NCBI GenBank assembly: GCA_038064595.1
Contig: JBBTSV010000003.1
Location: 41,150-105,149 of the forward strand
DNA from: Patescibacteria group bacterium
GTDB lineage: Bacteria; Patescibacteriota; Minisyncoccia; Phycocordibacterales; Phycocordibacteraceae
DNA length: 64,000 nucleotides
Direction of reading: 5' to 3'
The notes beneath the pieces are model-generated. The model saw only the letters and a program-made list of their open reading frames with translations. It had not been told where the DNA came from and ran no database searches. A program made the translations under genes and the position numbers. Within the stretch, counting starts at the first letter, position 1. Every line of letters begins with the position of its first letter. Shown here piece after piece: positions 17,281 to 25,606 of this stretch.

Positions 17281-17355
17281 GCCCCCATAGCTCAATGGAT
17301 AGAGCAGCGGACTTCTAAGCCGTTGATGTTGGTTCGATTCCAGCTGGAGGCACCA
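17281..17355 (+). tRNA. tRNA-Arg (anticodon TCT)
   Basis: D-arm GCTCAATGGATAGAGC, anticodon loop CTTCTAA, T-loop TTCGATT and an encoded CCA. Confidence 0.75.
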
Positions 17356-17371
17356 GGAGTATACTAGCAGT

Positions 17372-18469
17372 ATGCACACCCCCCGTTTTTATCACTCCAA
17401 GGCCGCGCTTCCCAAGGGCGCGCGCGTGAGAGATACGTTTGATGGCGCAGTTGATGAGCTCTTTTTTATCGAGCATCCAGCAGTGAGTAAACAAGATTCA
17501 CGTGCACCAGAACTTCTTAAGAAGTTTCGTGCACGCAGAAAAGTCTCCAGTCTCTGGGTCTACTATCCATGGCTCCATACTGCGGTGCGGATCCCATCAC
17601 AAACATTCTATGAGCATTTGCGGACAGCACGGAACCGCAATCTGATTCGTCCCGAAGAGCAGAAAAAATTTCGCCAGTCTATTGTGGGTGTGGCAGGACT
17701 TTCAGTCGGGTCAGCAGTGGTTGCCTCGCTTGTCGCGACAGGCGGACCACGTCGGTTGAAGATTGCTGACCCAGATACGATTGAGATCACCAACCTCAAT
17801 CGTATGCGCGCCACACTCGCCGATGTGGGAGAAAACAAGGCAGTGGTTGCGGCGCAAAACGCATGGGAAATTGATCCGTTTGCACAGATCGAGGTGTGGG
17901 ATAAGGGCATCCAAACAGAGACGGTAAAAAAGTTCATCACTGCCAAACCAACTCTTGATGTGTTTGTTGACGAGATGGACGATATTCGTATGAAAGTAGA
18001 AGCACGCCTCGTATGTAAAAAAGCACGTATCCCGGTGGTGATGGCGACCGACAATGGCGACAGTATCATTGTTGACGTCGAGCGTTTTGATCAAGAGCCA
18101 AGCCGCCCGCTCTTTCATGGACGGGTGACACTCACGCGAGCGGAGATGGCGACGATGACCCGGAGCCAATTCGTCGCACTTTCAACGAGGATTATCGATC
18201 CTGCACACCTCACCACTCGCCAACAAGAATCGATACGCGCTATTGGTTCTGAACTCGCGGGCATTGCACAGCTCGGGACGGCGGCCGCCCTTGCTGGGGC
18301 CGCAGTGAGTTATGTGGTACGGCGCATTGTATGCGGTGAGCCGCTCCCGTCGGGGCGCTACTCGATGGGATGTGAACCAACATTTATCCCTGGTTACCTG
18401 AGCGCGCGCGAAAAACAGAAACGCACACGCCACACCCGCGCATTTGTGGGAGGGCTCGGAGCACACTAG
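17372..18469 (+). CDS. ThiF/MoeB (E1-like) family adenylyltransferase with N-terminal extension
   Basis: Rossmann motif IVGVAGLSVGSAVVASLVATGG and NLNRM, inside roughly 100-aa flanking extensions. Confidence 0.7.
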   Translation: MHTPRFYHSKAALPKGARVRDTFDGAVDELFFIEHPAVSKQDSRAPELLKKFRARRKVSSLWVYYPWLHTAVRIPSQTFYEHLRTARNRNLIRPEEQKKFRQSIVGVAGLSVGSAVVASLVATGGPRRLKIADPDTIEITNLNRMRATLADVGENKAVVAAQNAWEIDPFAQIEVWDKGIQTETVKKFITAKPTLDVFVDEMDDIRMKVEARLVCKKARIPVVMATDNGDSIIVDVERFDQEPSRPLFHGRVTLTRAEMATMTRSQFVALSTRIIDPAHLTTRQQESIRAIGSELAGIAQLGTAAALAGAAVSYVVRRIVCGEPLPSGRYSMGCEPTFIPGYLSAREKQKRTRHTRAFVGGLGAH

Positions 18470-19944
18470 CGCTGTGTCGGTTGTACCCAACGGTGTTTTT
18501 TGCCGCGCACCGTCTGGATCTCGCCGTAGGGGACGAGAGTGAGATGTGGTTGCGCACGCTTCCCGACAGCTGAGCAGAGCTTTGCGTACTCACTGTTCAC
18601 CACCCTGATGTTTTTAGCGATCTCATCGGTTAGCGCAAGACGGAGCGCACTGGTTGGACGCGTCCCAGGCGATAGCTCGATGATAATTTTGAAACGCTGG
18701 TCCATTTGTTTCGTGTGAACGACACTCATAGTGAAGAGTCCGGACACCCGTGCGTAATAGCGTGAGTGCTCGAGTGCGTACTTTACATTTTCATTATAAA
18801 TAATCAGCGCGTAGAGTGATATGGAAAGATCTTTTCGACCATAGAGATACACAAAAGGGAGTCGCCACTCGGTAAGGGGGACAGCATGTTCGCGCGCGAG
18901 AGTAAGAAGGTGATCGTGTATTGAGGCGGGTAATGTGTTCTGCCACAAGACCCCGCCATTATCACGGGTGCTATAGCGAATGAGGGGGAGGCCGGCATTG
19001 GCGGTGAGGACGAGTGAGTCGCGATCCACCACTTCAAAATATCGTGCGCGTGGGTAGAACTGATAGAGCCCCGTTACCCGCGTGGCCGCAGGGAGCTCGG
19101 GGGAGGTGAGGGAAGAAAGGGAGCGACGAACAAGTTGTGAAAGCGGCGTCTCGTGCGCGACCACCCCCGACTCGGCCATCCCGTAAATGTTGGCAGTGAG
19201 GGTGAGGTCGTTTGGGTTCTTGCCAATCATTTTGAGCACCCACGACCGCCACGTCTCACTCACCGCTTCGCCGGCAAAGAGGAGGCGGACATCAAGCTGG
19301 TCCCAGTCGATACCGCACTCAATTCCGTACTCGAGAATGTCTTTGATAAAAGGGGGATATCCGGCAAGAATAATGCGTGAGAAAAGCGGAGAAAGTTTCT
19401 TAATCTGGCGCACGGTCTCGTGCTTATCAATACCAGGTGTGATGATGGTGAGCGGGGTGCCGTGTTCGGCAGACCAGCGTGCCGCGTTAAAGAACTCGAT
19501 TCCGGCAATCCAGGTGCCGAGTGAGAATGAATTCACAAAGAGTGTTGGCCCTGTCTGTGCGTCAAATATGCGGGTATACAAATGCTGGGCTTTTTGTCCC
19601 ACCACACGATCCTGTTCTTCGCCCCGTGGCCAAAAGAAAGGAATACCTGTTGAACCCGAGCTGGTTGAAATGTACTTTGAGCGCTCGAGAGAGCCGTCCC
19701 AACTGAGTTCAGCGAGATTATAGGCCGAGAAGTAATGTGGCTTGTCGGTGAGGGGGACGTGTGCGAAGTCTTCTTCAGTTTCAATACTACTCGGGCGCAC
19801 GCGTGCCTTCTTTAAAAAATCTTTATACGCAGGAACCCGCTCCGCCGCTTCACGAAAGAGGCGGAGCGCCCGCGTGAATGCACGTCGTCGGGAGTTGAGG
19901 GTCGTTGAGGAGGGGTCGAGATCCTCTATACGAGGGGGAGTCAT
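18466..19944 (-). CDS. adenylate-forming enzyme (PaaK / coenzyme F390 synthetase-like)
   Basis: AMP-binding motif TSSGSTGIPFFWPR. Start chosen at the ATG at 19944 (MTPPRIED); the ORF track's upstream extension is unsupported. Confidence 0.6.
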   Translation of the reverse strand: MTPPRIEDLDPSSTTLNSRRRAFTRALRLFREAAERVPAYKDFLKKARVRPSSIETEEDFAHVPLTDKPHYFSAYNLAELSWDGSLERSKYISTSSGSTGIPFFWPRGEEQDRVVGQKAQHLYTRIFDAQTGPTLFVNSFSLGTWIAGIEFFNAARWSAEHGTPLTIITPGIDKHETVRQIKKLSPLFSRIILAGYPPFIKDILEYGIECGIDWDQLDVRLLFAGEAVSETWRSWVLKMIGKNPNDLTLTANIYGMAESGVVAHETPLSQLVRRSLSSLTSPELPAATRVTGLYQFYPRARYFEVVDRDSLVLTANAGLPLIRYSTRDNGGVLWQNTLPASIHDHLLTLAREHAVPLTEWRLPFVYLYGRKDLSISLYALIIYNENVKYALEHSRYYARVSGLFTMSVVHTKQMDQRFKIIIELSPGTRPTSALRLALTDEIAKNIRVVNSEYAKLCSAVGKRAQPHLTLVPYGEIQTVRGKKHRWVQPTQR

Positions 19945-19984
19945 GGGTCGCAGGTAGTATACTATATGTATCACACGTTTTTCT

Positions 19985-21076
19985 ATGACGGACTTCTCAA
20001 CACCAACATCTAGAGCTACGCCAACGCAAGCAGAAATCACGGAGTGGCTCACCCGTGCGGTCCAGGCCCCCTCGGGCGATAACTCGCAGCCCTGGCGATT
20101 TCGATTTGAGGGAGACACGCTTTTTCTACTCAACCATGCCGAGGCGGACGCCACACAATATAATTTCAGACAACGCGGTTCACTCTTCGCGCACGGGGCA
20201 CTGATTGAAAACCTCTCACTCATAGCAGCTGAACAGGGGTATCAACTCGAATGTGCACTCTTCCCGCCGGTGCAGGGAGCGACTGCACGGCTCACGTTCG
20301 TACCCACCATACCAGTCTCCTCACCGCTTTTGGCCGCACTCCCAATACGTTCCACCAATCGGAAGCCATACGGGTCGCGCCCATTGACGACCGATGATCG
20401 GCGCACGCTTACCGAGGCCGTTGCTACCATACCCACAGTAAGAGTCCAGTTTGTTGGAGAGGCTACAGAGCGAGATCGACTCGCGCAGACATTGAGCGCC
20501 AATGAACAGCTGATCATGGAAAATCAAACACTCCACGACTTTCTCTTCAGCATCATTCGTTGGTCACCAGACGAAGAGAGGGCTGCACCCGGGCTCTCGG
20601 TCAAAACAATGGAACTCCCGCCGCCCGTGTATGTCTTGTTCCGTTTCGTGCTCAACTCATGGAGACGCGTGCAATTTCTCAATCGCTTTGGTTTCTCGAA
20701 GTTCATAAGGACCCAAATCACCACGGCGTATCGCGCTTCAGCAGCATTCGGAGCGATCGTTGTGCCTCACGACACAGATACAGATTTTGTTATCGCAGGA
20801 CGTGCGTTTGAGCGCCTCTGGTTGGCCGCGACACTCCGCGGCATCAGCCTACAGCCAACGGCGGCATTGCCGTACCTTGCGGCACGTGTCGCTCAAGGGG
20901 CAGCAGCTGCCTTTTCGCTTGATCAGCAACGTACGATACAGGAAGCATATAGCGCAATTGCCGCTACCTTTGAGGTGAGTGAGCACGAGACGATTCCGAT
21001 GTTATTTCGCTTGGGATATGGTGACCCTCCATCAGGCATTTCACATAAAGAAGTGCCCATCATCCTCGGCGCGTAA
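19985..21076 (+). CDS. nitroreductase-family oxidoreductase (two-lobed)
   Basis: APSGDNSQPWRF nitroreductase signature. 363 aa. Confidence 0.7.
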   Translation: MTDFSTPTSRATPTQAEITEWLTRAVQAPSGDNSQPWRFRFEGDTLFLLNHAEADATQYNFRQRGSLFAHGALIENLSLIAAEQGYQLECALFPPVQGATARLTFVPTIPVSSPLLAALPIRSTNRKPYGSRPLTTDDRRTLTEAVATIPTVRVQFVGEATERDRLAQTLSANEQLIMENQTLHDFLFSIIRWSPDEERAAPGLSVKTMELPPPVYVLFRFVLNSWRRVQFLNRFGFSKFIRTQITTAYRASAAFGAIVVPHDTDTDFVIAGRAFERLWLAATLRGISLQPTAALPYLAARVAQGAAAAFSLDQQRTIQEAYSAIAATFEVSEHETIPMLFRLGYGDPPSGISHKEVPIILGA

Positions 21077-21084
21077 ATACAGTC

Positions 21085-22713
21085 ATGGACATTCTCACCA
21101 CCCTCATCTACAGCCCTTCGCTCGACAGCATTATGCTGGTGGTGGCAGCGGTGGCCGACATCTTTCTTGCGGGCGCGGTACTCATGAGTAATCCGCGCAG
21201 CGCGACAAACCGCATCTTTTCGCTCCTTACCCTCTTCACAATGCTGTGGCTAGTCACCACCTATATCGTACGCCTTCCAGACTTTCTCCTCGTCTCGCTT
21301 GAACTGCACCGGTTTGGTATTTTTTGTGCCGCGGCGATGAGCGGACTCTTCTTCCTCTTGGCGCACACGATGCCTGCCTCTACGATCCAGCTCAAGCGCT
21401 CAACGTACGTGGTGGTGATTGGGTCAATCCTCCTCATGATGGGCGTCAATCTCTCGCCATATGCATTTACTGGAATCTTGATTGCGAATGGCACCAGTTC
21501 GCCGCTTCCAGGACCGGGCCTGGTAGTGTTTAGCATTCTCTCGACGCTCTACAGCGCGCTCACGGTCTATTGGTTGTTGCGCAAGTACAAACACTCAACT
21601 GGAGATGTGCGGCGCCAGTTCGGACTCGTGCTCTCGGGTATTGTGATCATGCTGGCACTTATTATTGGGACGATTCTCATCCCAATCATCATCTTCAATT
21701 CAATACAGTTCCTTACTTTCACGCCACTCTACACCCTGGTGTTTCTCGGGATGACTGCCTACGCGATAACGAAGTATCAACTTTTCAATATCAAAGTTTT
21801 GCTCACTCAAGCGTTGACGCTGGTGCTCTGTCTCATCCTCTTTGCGCGCATCTTTGGAGAAGAGAGTGTCAACGGACAGGTTATTGATGGAGTCGTACTG
21901 GTGTGTATGGCAGTTTTCGGCTATTTCTTGGTACAGAGCGTAAAAAAGGAAGTGCAGCAACGCGAGCGGATCCAGCTTCTGGCGAGCGAGCTCGAGAAAT
22001 CAAATGAACAACTTTCTGAGTTTATGTCGCTCGCGACCCACGAGATCCGCAATCCGGCCACCTTTATTAAGGGCTATGCCGCAGGGGCGCTCGAGGGCGA
22101 TCTCGGCGAGCTCACTCCTATTATTAAAGATGGAATGCAGAAGTTGTATGTGCGCGCAAACGACATCATTCACCTCGGCAATCAGTATCTCGATAAGTCA
22201 AAGCTTGAGCTCAACCAGCTTAAATACGAGTTCGCCCCACTCGATGTGCGCAAACTCATTGAAGATTTGGTGCATGAGTTTGAGCCCGCGGCTATTCAGC
22301 AGGGGATTACACTCTCTGCTAAAACAGACTCGGCGGGAACGTATACTATCGAAGCCGATGCCGGGAAGATTAAAGAGGTGGTCGCCAATCTGATCGATAA
22401 TTCAATCAAATATACTCCCAAGGGGTCGGTGACGGTGACACTCTCCCAGAAGAGCTCGGTCGTGAGGGTGGAGATCGCCGATACGGGTGTCGGCATCTCC
22501 GACGACGTGATCCCCAAACTCTTCAAGAAGTTCTCTCGCGCAGATGCACAGAAGGCAAATATTCTCGGCACCGGACTTGGCCTGTATATCGCTAAAGTCT
22601 TCATCGATGCGCACCACGGGAGCGTGCGCGTCGAGTCGACAGGCAAAGACAAGGGTTCGACTTTCATAGTTGAGTTGCCGATCACGCAACCGACTGGCGT
22701 GCCTGTTCGCTAG
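21085..22713 (+). CDS. membrane sensor histidine kinase
   Basis: Six or more TM helices, an H-box SLATHEIRNP and the HATPase_c motifs DTGVGI and GTGLGLYIAK. Confidence 0.85.
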   Translation: MDILTTLIYSPSLDSIMLVVAAVADIFLAGAVLMSNPRSATNRIFSLLTLFTMLWLVTTYIVRLPDFLLVSLELHRFGIFCAAAMSGLFFLLAHTMPASTIQLKRSTYVVVIGSILLMMGVNLSPYAFTGILIANGTSSPLPGPGLVVFSILSTLYSALTVYWLLRKYKHSTGDVRRQFGLVLSGIVIMLALIIGTILIPIIIFNSIQFLTFTPLYTLVFLGMTAYAITKYQLFNIKVLLTQALTLVLCLILFARIFGEESVNGQVIDGVVLVCMAVFGYFLVQSVKKEVQQRERIQLLASELEKSNEQLSEFMSLATHEIRNPATFIKGYAAGALEGDLGELTPIIKDGMQKLYVRANDIIHLGNQYLDKSKLELNQLKYEFAPLDVRKLIEDLVHEFEPAAIQQGITLSAKTDSAGTYTIEADAGKIKEVVANLIDNSIKYTPKGSVTVTLSQKSSVVRVEIADTGVGISDDVIPKLFKKFSRADAQKANILGTGLGLYIAKVFIDAHHGSVRVESTGKDKGSTFIVELPITQPTGVPVR

Positions 22714-22746: not shown

Positions 22747-22833
22747 GCCGTGGTGGCGAAATTGGTAGACGCGCTAGCTTCAGGAGCTAGTTCTCGCAAG
22801 GGATTGGGGGTTCGAGTCCCCCTCACGGCACCA
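22747..22833 (+). tRNA. tRNA-Leu (anticodon CAG)
   Basis: Class II tRNA with a long variable arm, anticodon loop TTCAGGA and an encoded CCA. Confidence 0.85.
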
Positions 22834-22834
22834 G

Positions 22835-22907
22835 GCACCCTTAGCTCAGTTGGTAGAGCAACTCATTTACACTGAGAAGGTCGGGGGTTCGAGTCCCTCA
22901 GGGTGCA
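22835..22907 (+). tRNA. tRNA-Val (anticodon TAC)
   Basis: Acceptor GCACCCT/AGGGTGC, anticodon loop TTTACAC. Starts 1 nt after tRNA-Leu. Confidence 0.8.
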
Positions 22908-22946
22908 CTTGAAACTAATATATATGGTATACCAGTTGATACGTAT

Positions 22947-24820: not shown

Positions 24821-24916
24821 TTTTCATACCGACAAAATCCGAGCCCACGTATGCTCGGATTTTGTTTTTCCACAATTGGTATACGCTACTACCTTGAGCT
24901 AGAGTATACTGGGTGC

Positions 24917-25606
24917 ATGGGGAAGAGTGGTCCAAAGCCGAAAGGGAAAGTGAAAATTACGTGGTCTGCGAACTTTGCCTATGCCCTTGGATTGATCGCC
25001 TCCGATGGCTGTCTTGCTGGAGGACGACATATCGTTCTGGTATCGAAAGACACCGAGCAGCTTGAAAACTTTATGAAGGCTCTCGCGATTACCGTCCCTA
25101 TAGGAAAGACAGCATCCGGTTACAATGGGAATATCGCATCTAAAGTCCAGTTCAGTGATGTCCTGTTCTATAATTTTCTGGAAACAATTGGTCTGATGCC
25201 TCGTAAGTCAAAAATTATTGGAGAGATACAAATTCCAGCTAAGTACTTCTTTGATTTCTTACGCGGCTCTTTTGATGGTGATGGATGCACCTACTCCTAC
25301 TGGGATCCGCGCTGGAAGTCGAGCTTTATGTTCTACACTACCTTCGTCTCCGCGAGCTACAAACACATCGAGTGGCTCCGCGACGAGATTCATGCGCAGT
25401 TAGGTATTCGTGGACACCTGACGGGGGATGGAAAAAGAGTTATCTTTCAGCTCAAATACGCCAAGGCAGACTCACTGAAACTATTGCGTAAAATGTATTA
25501 CTCAAAAAAGGTGCTCTGCCTTTCTCGCAAACGATTGAAAATTGAGAAGATGTTAGGTATAGTGGGTGAGTTGCTAGTGAAAAAGAGCAAGAAATTGACA
25601 AGATAA
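24917..25606 (+). CDS. LAGLIDADG-family homing endonuclease (double motif)
   Basis: LGLIASDGCL and LRGSFDGDGCT motifs. AT-rich. ATG at 24917 after a TATACT box. The stop codon ends 2 nt before tRNA-Leu(GAG). Confidence 0.65.
   Translation: MGKSGPKPKGKVKITWSANFAYALGLIASDGCLAGGRHIVLVSKDTEQLENFMKALAITVPIGKTASGYNGNIASKVQFSDVLFYNFLETIGLMPRKSKIIGEIQIPAKYFFDFLRGSFDGDGCTYSYWDPRWKSSFMFYTTFVSASYKHIEWLRDEIHAQLGIRGHLTGDGKRVIFQLKYAKADSLKLLRKMYYSKKVLCLSRKRLKIEKMLGIVGELLVKKSKKLTR

Follow-up and report, generated by a model that had tools for sequence, protein, structure and literature searches.

Gene content of the locus

The window analyzed here is a 64,000-nucleotide stretch from the genome of an ultrasmall bacterium of the Patescibacteria. 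It contains three genuine and intact ORFs encoding a ThiF-like protein, an adenylate-forming ligase, and a nitroreductase-fold protein (Table 1). A first-pass annotation had placed all three, including the 363-aa nitroreductase-fold protein, after tRNA-Arg, and we recover them at the same coordinates. That annotation overlooked the conserved sensor kinase encoded directly downstream of the oxidase. It had also described the ligase gene as divergent, which holds with respect to the oxidase gene only (40-nt gap); relative to the ThiF gene it is convergent, and the tails of the two genes overlap by 4 nt. The longest ligase ORF extends to 20223. This form is over-extended: the source annotation gives a protein of 492 aa (18466-19944), in agreement with more than 100 homologues, so that ligase and nitroreductase genes do not overlap.

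Table 1. Features of the locus, in coordinates of the window.
Feature	Coordinates	Strand	Basis or remark
tRNA-Arg(TCT)	17281-17355	+	ARAGORN; upstream boundary of the module, no functional part in it
Palindromic -10-like element AGTATACT	17358-17365		Ends 6 nt before the ThiF ATG
Predicted TrzS/OxzB-type ThiF-like ATP-dependent cyclase, stand-alone, 365 aa	17372-18469	+	Profile models, alignment
PaaK-fold adenylate-forming ligase, uncurated subfamily, 492 aa	18466-19944	-	
Divergent intergenic region, 40 nt	19945-19984		Between ligase and oxidase genes
Palindrome AGTATACT	19956-19963		Within the 40-nt ligase/oxidase intergenic region
Flavin-dependent oxidase, nitroreductase fold, 363 aa	19985-21076	+	Profile models, AF2
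HisKA_7TM sensor histidine kinase, 542 aa	21085-22713	+	Pfam HisKA_7TM, HisKA, HATPase_c
tRNA-Leu(CAG) and tRNA-Val(TAC)	22747-22908	+	ARAGORN; downstream boundary of the module

The ThiF gene starts 16 nt after the end of tRNA-Arg and lies 1.5 kb away from the oxidase gene, while only 8 nt separate the oxidase stop from the kinase start (in one related locus, L002, these two genes overlap by 4 nt). Intergenic gaps across the module are 16, 40, 8, and 33 nt, and the genes that flank it in the window are housekeeping genes. Positions 17372-22713 form a single functional cluster, larger than the three genes first noted.

The palindrome AGTATACT occurs three times in 64 kb, against 0.32 expected, and all three copies sit 6-21 nt ahead of start codons. 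The copy at 17358-17365 is probably the promoter of a ThiF transcript with little or no leader. That at 19956-19963 probably serves as a bidirectional -10 element, shared by the ligase gene and the oxidase-kinase operon. In related loci, its intergenic position is occupied by TAGTATAAT or TAGTATACT.

The ThiF protein and the oxidase resemble the two halves of TrzS

TrzS (Rv1355c) is a fused ThiF-cyclase and flavin-dependent oxidase that, as shown between 2021 and 2025, makes oxazolones from N-acyl amino acids. For TrzS, TyzB/TyzC, and OxzB, it has been demonstrated experimentally that an ATP-dependent cyclase and an O2-dependent desaturase make N-acyl oxazolones (PMC12856293, PMC10404671, bioRxiv 10.1101/2020.06.11.147165).

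The ThiF protein matches Pfam ThiF (E 1.5e-22) and the NCBIfam model of the Rv1355c family, NF005901 (E 4e-84, 283 bits, model positions 60-338 of 722); the runner-up NCBIfam family scores 69 bits. Over 286 aa, residues 45-329 are 40% identical to the ThiF half of an Rv1355c family protein annotated by PGAP. The long N- and C-terminal extensions previously ascribed to the protein are not additions. Among 42 ThiF homologues, GxGxxG, DPD, NLNR, and DEMD are invariant. The last of these contains D203 and is matched in alignments by ECD in the Rv1355c family protein and by IDAID in TcdA. In TrzS, the aspartate of the adenylation motif, D217, is required for cyclization (PMC12856293); by alignment, its equivalent is kept as the invariant D203.

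The oxidase matches the other half of the same model (positions 368-710 of 722, E 3e-49, 168 bits), and it scores PRK14851 equally (E 3e-49), followed by the Acg family (E 4e-41). Each protein spans only half of NF005901, and neither reaches its equivalog cut-off of 476 bits (283 for ThiF, 168 for the oxidase). The oxidase is colinear with the PGAP-annotated Rv1355c family protein (25% identity over 280 aa). Its AF2 model (pLDDT 96.2) has as its top PDB match 2YMV (E 3.7e-14), a monomeric Acg homologue that is also the reference used for the TrzS oxidase domain. This match is full length (TM 0.69/0.76), whereas ordinary nitroreductases span only about half of the model, which agrees with the earlier description of the protein as two-lobed. 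APSGxNxQPW, R122/R126, and R342-x-G344 are invariant among 66 oxidase homologues; equivalents of TrzS R540 and Q651 are not mappable onto the protein. Judged by these matches, the ThiF protein belongs to the TrzS/OxzB/TyzB cyclase clade, and the ThiF protein and oxidase correspond to the N- and C-halves of Rv1355c/TrzS, split into two genes.

Three other origins for this pair were weighed. ThiF-like and nitroreductase-fold proteins are both known from TOMM systems (PMC12596934), and the first-pass annotation had likened the cluster to TOMM/azoline-forming or other peptide modification systems. The ThiF protein would then be a docking or cyclodehydratase partner, and a precursor peptide would be the substrate of the nitroreductase, working as an azoline dehydrogenase of the SagB type. 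We consider this very improbable. The ocin_ThiF_like, SagB-type dehydrogenase, and YcaO NCBIfam models are unmatched at E <= 0.01, and the lack of a YcaO gene and of a visible precursor, already remarked upon in that annotation, is confirmed. The intergenic gaps are too small for a precursor gene and yielded no small ORF, and a conserved small ORF is absent in approximately 30 related loci. The 283 bits that the ThiF protein scores on the small-molecule TrzS family likewise argue against peptide modification.

A housekeeping E1, activating a sulfur carrier (MoeB/ThiF) or acting in tRNA ct6A synthesis (TcdA), would make the clustering with a nitroreductase and a CoA ligase coincidental. The closest solved structures to the ThiF protein by sequence are indeed TcdA and ThiF, homologues are labeled MoeB or TcdA in some sources, and tRNA genes flank the locus. 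Yet the protein scores only 47-59 bits with MoeB/ThiF sulfur-carrier models (cut-offs 152-275) and 44 bits with the TcdA model NF011696 (cut-off 304), although TcdA is its nearest solved relative. Its cysteines (215, 321, and 334 only) include no CxxC pair and no conserved residue, and in the 64-kb window, none of the ORFs of 50-130 aa has the Gly-Gly end expected of a ThiS/MoaD-like partner. Furthermore, linkage to, and fusion with, the ligase are conserved, while the tRNA adjacency is not kept in related loci. MoeB/ThiF chemistry, the housekeeping explanation that the first-pass annotation had raised against itself, is thus not supported, and we regard this origin as very unlikely. Both the TOMM/RiPP and the housekeeping MoeB/ThiF readings were rejected; the ThiF/nitroreductase pair instead matches the small-molecule oxazolone synthetases OxzB, TrzS, and TyzBC.

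Weak PADLOC E1-E2 matches (best E 3e-10) and a match to NCBIfam 6A-MBL cap2_3 (E 1e-5) could point to E1-like protein conjugation or an anti-phage system of the Cap2/Bil/6A-MBL type. However, these matches span the generic Rossmann core only, the ligase and oxidase have no PADLOC matches, and genes for E2, JAB, ubiquitin-like, or effector proteins are absent, making such a system extremely improbable.

A PaaK-fold ligase in the place of an N-acyltransferase

The ligase carries TSSGSTGIPFFWPR and has a confident PaaK fold with a complete ANL motif set. Its structural neighbors include ClxA, EhpF, and 6siw, and they include CoA-independent ester/amide ligases. With the phenylacetate-CoA ligase equivalog TIGR02155, it reaches 35 bits, far below the cut-off of 646, and paa catabolic genes are absent from every locus examined. 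NatL2 and ClxA are PaaK-family enzymes that move acyl-AMP onto O or N nucleophiles without CoA (PMC7204872, PMC12519233). By analogy, the ligase probably fills the place of the missing OxzA/TyzA/TrzA N-acyltransferase. A jackhmmer search with candidates from actinobacterial Rv1355c/ThiF loci found no acyltransferase of this type in the window or in module loci, although the type has no Pfam model, so that a very divergent member could escape.

Alternatively, the pathway may be of oxazolone type with the PaaK-like enzyme acting as an ordinary acyl-CoA ligase, its acyl-CoA being made for an unlinked N-acyltransferase. We regard this as distinctly unlikely in light of the acyltransferase search and because related loci contain no conserved neighbor families beyond the module's own. 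It is also at odds with the direct fusion of ligase to ThiF in natural proteins and with an insertion of ~18 aa at the A7-A8 hinge relative to BT_0428. In addition, Patescibacteria generally lack fatty-acid and CoA-centered metabolism.

The four genes form a conserved unit

We find that the ligase, ThiF, oxidase, and kinase genes are a conserved unit. Among 30 distinct ligase-anchored loci, mostly from Patescibacteria, ThiF lies within 5 kb of the ligase in 26, the 7TM kinase in 25, and the oxidase in 19; several of the loci missing partners run into contig ends. None of the three partners is found in 54 other ligase loci, mainly from non-Patescibacteria genomes (cyanobacteria, methanotrophs, and actinomycetes). 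At least nine different arrangements of the four genes were seen, and look-ups anchored on ThiF or oxidase homologues return the same module. Natural fusions join ThiF-ligase (880 aa), ligase-ThiF (863 aa), dehydrogenase-ligase (847 aa), and dehydrogenase-ligase-ThiF (1242 aa). The last is an unbroken ORF in two assemblies, where it lies between the oxidase and the 7TM kinase.

Related loci also carry accessory enzymes. A class I/II aminotransferase lies beside the ligase in five distinct of seven fetched loci, a ScyB-like (Trp/Leu/Phe-type) dehydrogenase in five loci in addition to the fusions, and an MIO enzyme (lyase/mutase) in L096. L096 and L098 have different accessory enzymes in the same syntenic slot. 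No amino-acid-deaminating enzyme is encoded at the window locus. Some related modules carry Acg-family oxidases instead, the oxidase is missing in L007, L015, and L040, and ThiF is missing in L008 and L060. As the type and presence of the oxidase and the presence of ThiF vary among modules, the product is probably not uniform. The ligase-kinase pair is kept where all other enzymes vary (L008 and L060).

The sensor kinase and its possible roles

The kinase has approximately 8-9 transmembrane helices joined by loops of at most 21 aa, followed by HisKA and HATPase_c domains (hydropathy scan, Pfam), and its sensor domain consists of membrane helices only. No response regulator is encoded within the 64-kb window; in L004, L007, L014-L017, L023, L027, L028, and L031, receiver-only response regulators are encoded next to the module.

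Substrate-induced catabolic operons just as typically pair a kinase with enzymes, and kinases are common beside enzymes under their control. The 7TM kinase might accordingly sense an aromatic or 2-oxo acid from outside the cell, for example from a host, and induce the enzymes for its conversion or salvage, with a product that is a metabolite, detoxification product, or antimicrobial rather than a signal for the kinase. Patescibacteria rely on host metabolites, and PaaK relatives work in aromatic acid catabolism. Furthermore, N-acyl tyrosine derivatives can be antimicrobial (PMC12856293, discussion). We nevertheless judge a salvage role unlikely, since no locus contains paa, beta-oxidation, or ring-cleavage genes, ThiF plus oxidase chemistry is biosynthetic in every characterized case, and the ligase-kinase pair persists in L008 and L060.

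With modest confidence, we lean toward the genes at 17372-22713 being a four-gene module that makes, and probably senses, a small amino-acid-derived heterocycle. In such a pathway, the ligase would adenylate a carboxylic acid, which in related loci would be supplied by an adjacent or fused deaminating enzyme (an aminotransferase, ScyB-like dehydrogenase, or MIO enzyme). It would most likely hand the acyl group straight to an amino acid's amine, with no CoA involved, yielding an N-acyl amino acid, a step that in known systems is the job of the acyl-CoA-dependent OxzA/TyzA/TrzA. The TrzS-like ThiF protein would adenylate the amino-acid carboxylate, the amide oxygen would close an oxazol-5(4H)-one ring, and the flavin-dependent oxidase would desaturate C-alpha/C-beta. 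Finally, the co-transcribed polytopic kinase would sense the product or a precursor in the membrane and relay this to a response regulator encoded elsewhere. The homologies, folds, linkage across rearrangements, and natural fusions of the module are observed. All of its chemistry is assigned by analogy; the substrates, the amide-forming step at the ligase, an oxazolone as product, and the kinase ligand are inferred.

A tentative extension, possible if rather doubtful, is that the module is a self-contained cell-cell signaling circuit of Patescibacteria, in which a CoA/ACP-free amino-acid-derived heterocycle is perceived by a dedicated 7TM kinase. Following two ATP-dependent activations, the ring may be an aryl- or 2-oxoacyl-amino-acid-derived oxazolone, or a morpholinedione/dehydro-heterocycle. 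The physiological role of bacterial oxazolones has been stated to be unresolved, with signaling a speculation based on resemblance in structure and on c-di-GMP genes nearby (PMC12856293). A cyclase and oxidase tied to a membrane kinase through many rearrangements would offer a direct test of this idea. If such a circuit exists, it would give oxazolones a physiological role and would be the first autoinducer-type system described for the Patescibacteria radiation; in the literature searched, we found no mention of a dedicated small-molecule synthesis/sensing system in this group. The wider ligase family would then be signal synthases, coupled in other phyla to other receptor kinases (Ser/Thr kinases in the case of cyanobacteria). 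Patescibacteria genomes are very small. A conserved unit of four to six genes of this kind is relevant to how these epibionts sense their hosts or one another. The replacement of an acyl-CoA transferase by an adenylate-forming ligase, together with the fused dehydrogenase-ligase-cyclase, also suggests a possible CoA-free route to N-acyl amino acids and azlactones, with possible use in biocatalysis.

Comparison with known systems

The combination of ligase, ThiF, oxidase, and kinase was not found in the searchable literature. Of the earlier suggestion of an undescribed modification pathway, peptide modification is not supported.

In CqsA/CqsS, LqsA/LqsS, and LuxM/LuxN, an autoinducer synthase gene lies beside a sensor kinase whose sensor is made of membrane helices only. 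The module similarly places a biosynthetic gene beside a polytopic kinase, but this likeness is in architecture only, as there is no sequence relationship to the synthases or sensor domains of those pairs. NatL2 and ClxA, the CoA-independent PaaK-family ligases of benzoxazole biosynthesis (PMC7204872, PMC9400959, PMC12519233), act on hydroxy-anthranilate-type acids; the CoA independence of the ligase here is putative. NatL2, ClxA, and EhpF share only 12-22% identity with it and are partnered by an amidohydrolase instead of ThiF and a flavin-dependent oxidase (FDO).

In Pseudoalteromonas rubra, the oxazolone synthetase OxzAB (de Rond et al., bioRxiv 10.1101/2020.06.11.147165) has the same ThiF plus nitroreductase chemistry, turning an N-acyl aromatic amino acid into an oxazolone. 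However, OxzB is fused and paired with the N-acyltransferase OxzA, and that study mentions no ligase or kinase partner. TyzACB (Rv2336-Rv2338c), the tyrazolone pathway (Grigg et al. 2023, PMC10404671), shares a stand-alone ThiF (TyzB), a stand-alone monomeric FDO of ~370 aa (TyzC), and a third gene on the opposite strand. That third gene encodes an AHL-synthase-like acyl-CoA acyltransferase (TyzA) where the module has an adenylate-forming ligase, and the tyz locus has no kinase.

Mycobacteria and Rhodococcus make N-acyl tryptazolones by the TrzAS pathway (Rv1356c/Rv1355c; Kleetz et al. 2025, PMC12856293). The module differs from it in that the counterpart of TrzS is encoded by two genes, with a ligase gene of opposite orientation between them, in having a PaaK-fold ATP-dependent ligase and no TrzA-type acyl-CoA N-acyltransferase, in its tightly linked 7TM histidine kinase, and in its Patescibacteria rather than actinomycete host. 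With TrzAS it shares, by homology, a ThiF cyclase of the same clade with the adenylation aspartate kept, an oxidase of the same FDO fold that is colinear with the C-half of TrzS, and the character of a small-molecule, not a peptide, system.

Layout and setting of the module

The tRNA-Arg(TCT) gene directly precedes the ThiF gene, as the first-pass annotation had placed it, and tRNA genes bound the four-gene module on both sides. The layout is compact, with no room for an additional gene: intergenic gaps at the module are 16, 40, 8 and 33 nt, and the ThiF and ligase genes overlap tail-to-tail by 4 nt. A 585-aa ORF for the ligase was rejected as over-extended; the 492-aa Met start is that of the source annotation and of more than 100 homologues. 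The flanks are housekeeping (RuvX, a tRNA-binding protein, PilM and pilus genes, UppS, a pseudouridine synthase and L19). Recent acquisition as an island was rejected, since the GC content of the module is that of its flanks. A free-standing LAGLIDADG-like ORF with a weak Pfam match lies between the L19 gene and tRNA-Leu(GAG).

The window derives from a metagenome-assembled genome of Patescibacteria (CPR). Ligase and ThiF have NCBI matches at 100% identity, named 'MAG: ... [Patescibacteria group bacterium]'. Unlike these, the nitroreductase-fold oxidase (FDO) has a best homologue match of 56% and none at 100%, with an ORF that is intact and full length. The source annotation may have called the gene differently or left it uncalled.

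The window contains three copies of the palindromic octamer AGTATACT, with 0.32 expected. The octamer resembles a -10 box of leaderless or short-leader transcripts, and the copy in the 40-nt divergent gap could serve both directions. A role as an operator was set aside: related loci carry TAGTATAAT at the same position, and AGTATACT is therefore read as an ordinary -10 box.

Features of the module, its surroundings and related loci (L handles denote loci gathered through ligase, ThiF or oxidase homologues; positions without a handle are those of the window)
Feature	Position	Strand	Length	Remark
tRNA-Arg(TCT)	17281-17355			5' boundary of four-gene block
ThiF	17372-18469	+	365 aa	
PaaK-like ligase	18466-19944	-	492 aa	
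Nitroreductase-fold protein (FDO)	19985-21076	+	363 aa	
Histidine kinase (HisKA_7TM)	21085-22713	+	542 aa	
tRNA-Leu/tRNA-Val	22747-22908			3' boundary of four-gene block
Palindromic octamer AGTATACT	17358-17365, 19956-19963, 24903-24910			6-21 nt before start codons
LAGLIDADG-like ORF	24917-25606	+		
ThiF-ligase natural fusion			880 aa	among ligase family representatives
Ligase-ThiF natural fusion			863 aa	among ligase family representatives
ScyB-like dehydrogenase-ligase natural fusion			847 aa	among ligase family representatives
Dehydrogenase-ligase-ThiF natural fusion	L098:5001-8729, L099:819-4547		1242 aa	among ligase family representatives
Ser/Thr kinase/ligase-homologue neighbourhood	L034:8058-9749, L034:5845-7962	both -		
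Streptomyces plasmid ThiF and GNAT	L091:5866-7664, L092:5710-7484			
Rhodococcus plasmid Rv1355c family locus	L093:1705-5953			
Wolfebacteria oxidase-kinase locus	L095:7077-11819			
Protein in ligase slot, Yanofskybacteria	L097:7110-8189		359 aa	

ThiF and the oxidase

Rv1355c is TrzS, a fusion that makes N-acyl tryptazolone: its ThiF domain uses ATP to cyclise N-acyl tryptophan, and its FDO domain follows with an O2-dependent desaturation (PMC12856293). Pfam gives our ThiF protein a generic ThiF domain alone. Among NCBIfam models, by contrast with 44-59 bits for MoeB, ThiF and TcdA and 69 bits for the next family, 'Rv1355c family protein' is matched at 283 bits (E 4e-84, model positions 60-338 of 722). 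Residues 45-329 are 40% identical to residues 51-324 of a 718-aa Rv1355c family protein, and tblastn against plasmids leads to PGAP-annotated 'Rv1355c family proteins' of Mycobacterium and Rhodococcus. The first-pass annotation was right to call the protein ThiF, but the long N- and C-terminal extensions that it noted belong to the Rv1355c family. The GxGxxG, DPD and NLNR motifs are invariant in 42 homologues, as is D203, the counterpart of the TrzS adenylation-motif Asp (D217A mutant). The ThiF protein has no CxxC pair and no conserved Cys, and no small ORF ending in Gly-Gly occurs in the whole 64 kb window, which argues against sulfur-carrier or ubiquitin-like chemistry. A housekeeping role of the MoeB, ThiF or TcdA kind (the first-pass annotation had raised MoeB as an alternative) was rejected on the model scores, the absent Gly-Gly partner and the lack of a conserved Cys. 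An anti-phage E1 system was also rejected, as matches were confined to the generic Rossmann core.

The FDO has a sub-threshold match to Pfam nitroreductase. It matches the Acg family of FMN oxidoreductases in NCBIfam and positions 368-710 of the Rv1355c family model (E 3e-49); residues 25-293 are 25% identical to residues 370-638 of the 718-aa protein. ThiF and FDO align with successive parts of the Rv1355c fusion and are therefore a split version of it. The AF2 model of the FDO (pLDDT 96.2) is matched over its full length by the Acg homologue 2YMV, whereas classical nitroreductases span only about half of it. At the level of the predicted structure, this confirms a monomeric FDO architecture with the two lobes first proposed for this 363-aa protein. 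The usual flavin-site motifs do not vary among 66 homologues.

The ligase and the sensor kinase

The ligase has no Pfam match, and against the 646-bit cut-off of the PaaK equivalog model it scores only 35 bits. The ANL core motifs are all conserved, including the C-terminal Lys (K483). Compared with BT_0428, the ligase carries an insertion of ~18 residues at the domain hinge, between motifs A7 and A8. The family is of modest size: at 50% identity and E <= 1e-30 it comprises 458 clusters in a set of 1.84 billion representatives. In the PDB, a profile built from 103 homologues matches PaaK entries at E 6e-11. Two PaaK-family enzymes, NatL2 (PMC7204872; probably PDB entry 6siw) and ClxA (PMC12519233), use an O or N nucleophile rather than CoA as acceptor for the acyl adenylate.

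The kinase gene starts 8 nt past the FDO stop, and in related modules it is almost always the final gene. Its N-terminal 285 residues form ~8-9 hydrophobic helices with loops of at most 21 residues, followed directly by HisKA and HATPase_c, with no PAS or HAMP domain. No response regulator was found in the window; receiver-only response regulators border many related modules.

Outside Patescibacteria, ligase homologues (35-38% identity) adjoin, divergently, one or two single-pass receptor-type Ser/Thr protein kinases at 28 cyanobacterial loci and one Sorangium locus (e.g., L034, L046, L059 and L044). The cyanobacterial kinases, being single-pass, do not have the 7TM sensor. In Methylomicrobium (L076), a ligase homologue has an SBP_bac_3-GGDEF protein beside it. 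Overall, the ligase family seems to be associated with signalling proteins.

Conservation and variation of the module

Ligase, ThiF, nitroreductase and HisKA_7TM kinase occur together, in varying order and orientation, at the loci of three ligase homologues that are 60%, 52% and 43% identical. A scan of one genome per species found at least 598 relatives, of which the best 80 loci, together with look-ups, were analyzed by our own ORF calling and HMM searches and underlie the locus statistics (jackhmmer E-values relate to small databases; taxonomic labels are those of the MAG records, e.g., Gammaproteobacteria for L015). Within 5 kb of the ligase, among 30 distinct loci, mostly from Patescibacteria, ThiF was present in 26, the 7TM kinase in 25 and the FDO in 19; several loci missing a partner stop at contig edges. 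None of the three occurred in the 54 other ligase loci (mainly cyanobacteria, Methylococcaceae and actinomycetes). Module loci show at least nine gene orders, and reverse look-ups from oxidase or ThiF homologues lead to the same neighbourhood.

Fusions join the same enzymes; on the Rv1355c model, their ThiF portions reach 257-302 bits. The longest, of ScyB-like dehydrogenase, PaaK-like ligase and TrzS-like ThiF, is an unbroken ORF in two independent assemblies, with an oxidase gene on one side and, following it on the other, alpha/beta-hydrolase and 7TM kinase genes. Unfused ligase genes lie directly beside a class I/II aminotransferase at seven fetched loci (five distinct) and beside a ScyB-like dehydrogenase of the Trp/Leu/Phe type at five. 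At L096 the neighbour is an MIO enzyme, which scores as either tyrosine 2,3-aminomutase or histidine ammonia-lyase; L096 and the triple-fusion locus L098 share one syntenic position, with ArgRS upstream and with bactofilin and DAGK downstream, but differ in their accessory enzymes. Each of the three accessory types takes the alpha-amino group off an amino acid or moves it, leaving a carboxylic acid, and we infer that the ligase uses an acid of this kind as its substrate. No aminotransferase, ScyB-like dehydrogenase or MIO gene is present at the window locus.

In a Yanofskybacteria locus (L097), the ligase slot (ThiF > ? > oxidase > kinase) holds a 359-aa protein without Pfam, NCBIfam or PDB match, which could be a non-homologous ligase replacement, e.g., an acyltransferase. 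In a Wolfebacteria locus (L095), the genes run oxidase, 303-aa unknown protein, 7TM kinase, 271-aa unknown protein; the 303-aa protein recurs in L024 and L060. Next come a gene for an MvdD-like ATP-grasp protein and an ORF of 46 aa, which may be an adjacent microviridin-like RiPP.

Proposed pathway and comparison with known systems

The first-pass annotation had likened the cluster to TOMM/azoline-forming or other peptide or small-molecule modification systems, with precursor peptides to be sought in the flanks. The TOMM/RiPP reading was rejected: TOMM models were unmatched, the intergenic gaps are too small for a precursor gene, and related loci share no conserved small ORF.

We propose instead that the ligase would adenylate an acid whose probable source is an aromatic or hydrophobic amino acid, and that the acyl group would move onto the amine of an amino acid to give an N-acyl amino acid. 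Such a transfer is suggested by the lack of an OxzA/TyzA/TrzA-like gene, by the ligase-ThiF fusions and by the NatL2 and ClxA precedents. By homology with characterised enzymes, ThiF would then adenylate the amino-acid carboxylate, with closure of the oxazolone ring, and the FDO would desaturate the ring substituent. Gene linkage and the all-membrane sensor suggest that the kinase senses the product or a precursor. Some modules are without oxidase or ThiF and others have Acg-family oxidases, so products probably differ between lineages.

On Streptomyces plasmids (L091 and L092), a stand-alone TrzS-like ThiF gene overlaps a GNAT gene, and the annotated features include no oxidase; this pair may represent a saturated-oxazolone or other variant. 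On a Rhodococcus plasmid (L093), the neighbours of an Rv1355c family gene are a GGDEF-domain gene and, divergently oriented, a gene for a 260-aa hypothetical protein; the GGDEF neighbour agrees with the published proximity of trzAS and c-di-GMP genes (PMC12856293).

The ThiF/FDO chemistry was already known from work of 2021-2025: besides TrzS, the separate proteins TyzB and TyzC (PMC10404671) and the fused OxzB (bioRxiv 10.1101/2020.06.11.147165) act likewise on tyrosine and phenylalanine. Acid and methanol hydrolyse oxazolones (PMC12856293). Neither a ligase partner nor a histidine kinase is mentioned in those papers or in a 2025 review on ThiF-like enzymes, and full-text searches returned nothing relevant on oxazolone/ThiF, histidine kinase and Patescibacteria together. 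An acyltransferase is one of the defining features of OxzAB, TrzAS and TyzACB. Putative TrzA-like and GNAT queries from actinobacterial plasmid loci, including a 260-aa Rhodococcus putative TrzA homologue without a Pfam model, found no acyltransferase in the window or in any module locus. The module is thus best not counted as an ordinary member of these systems.
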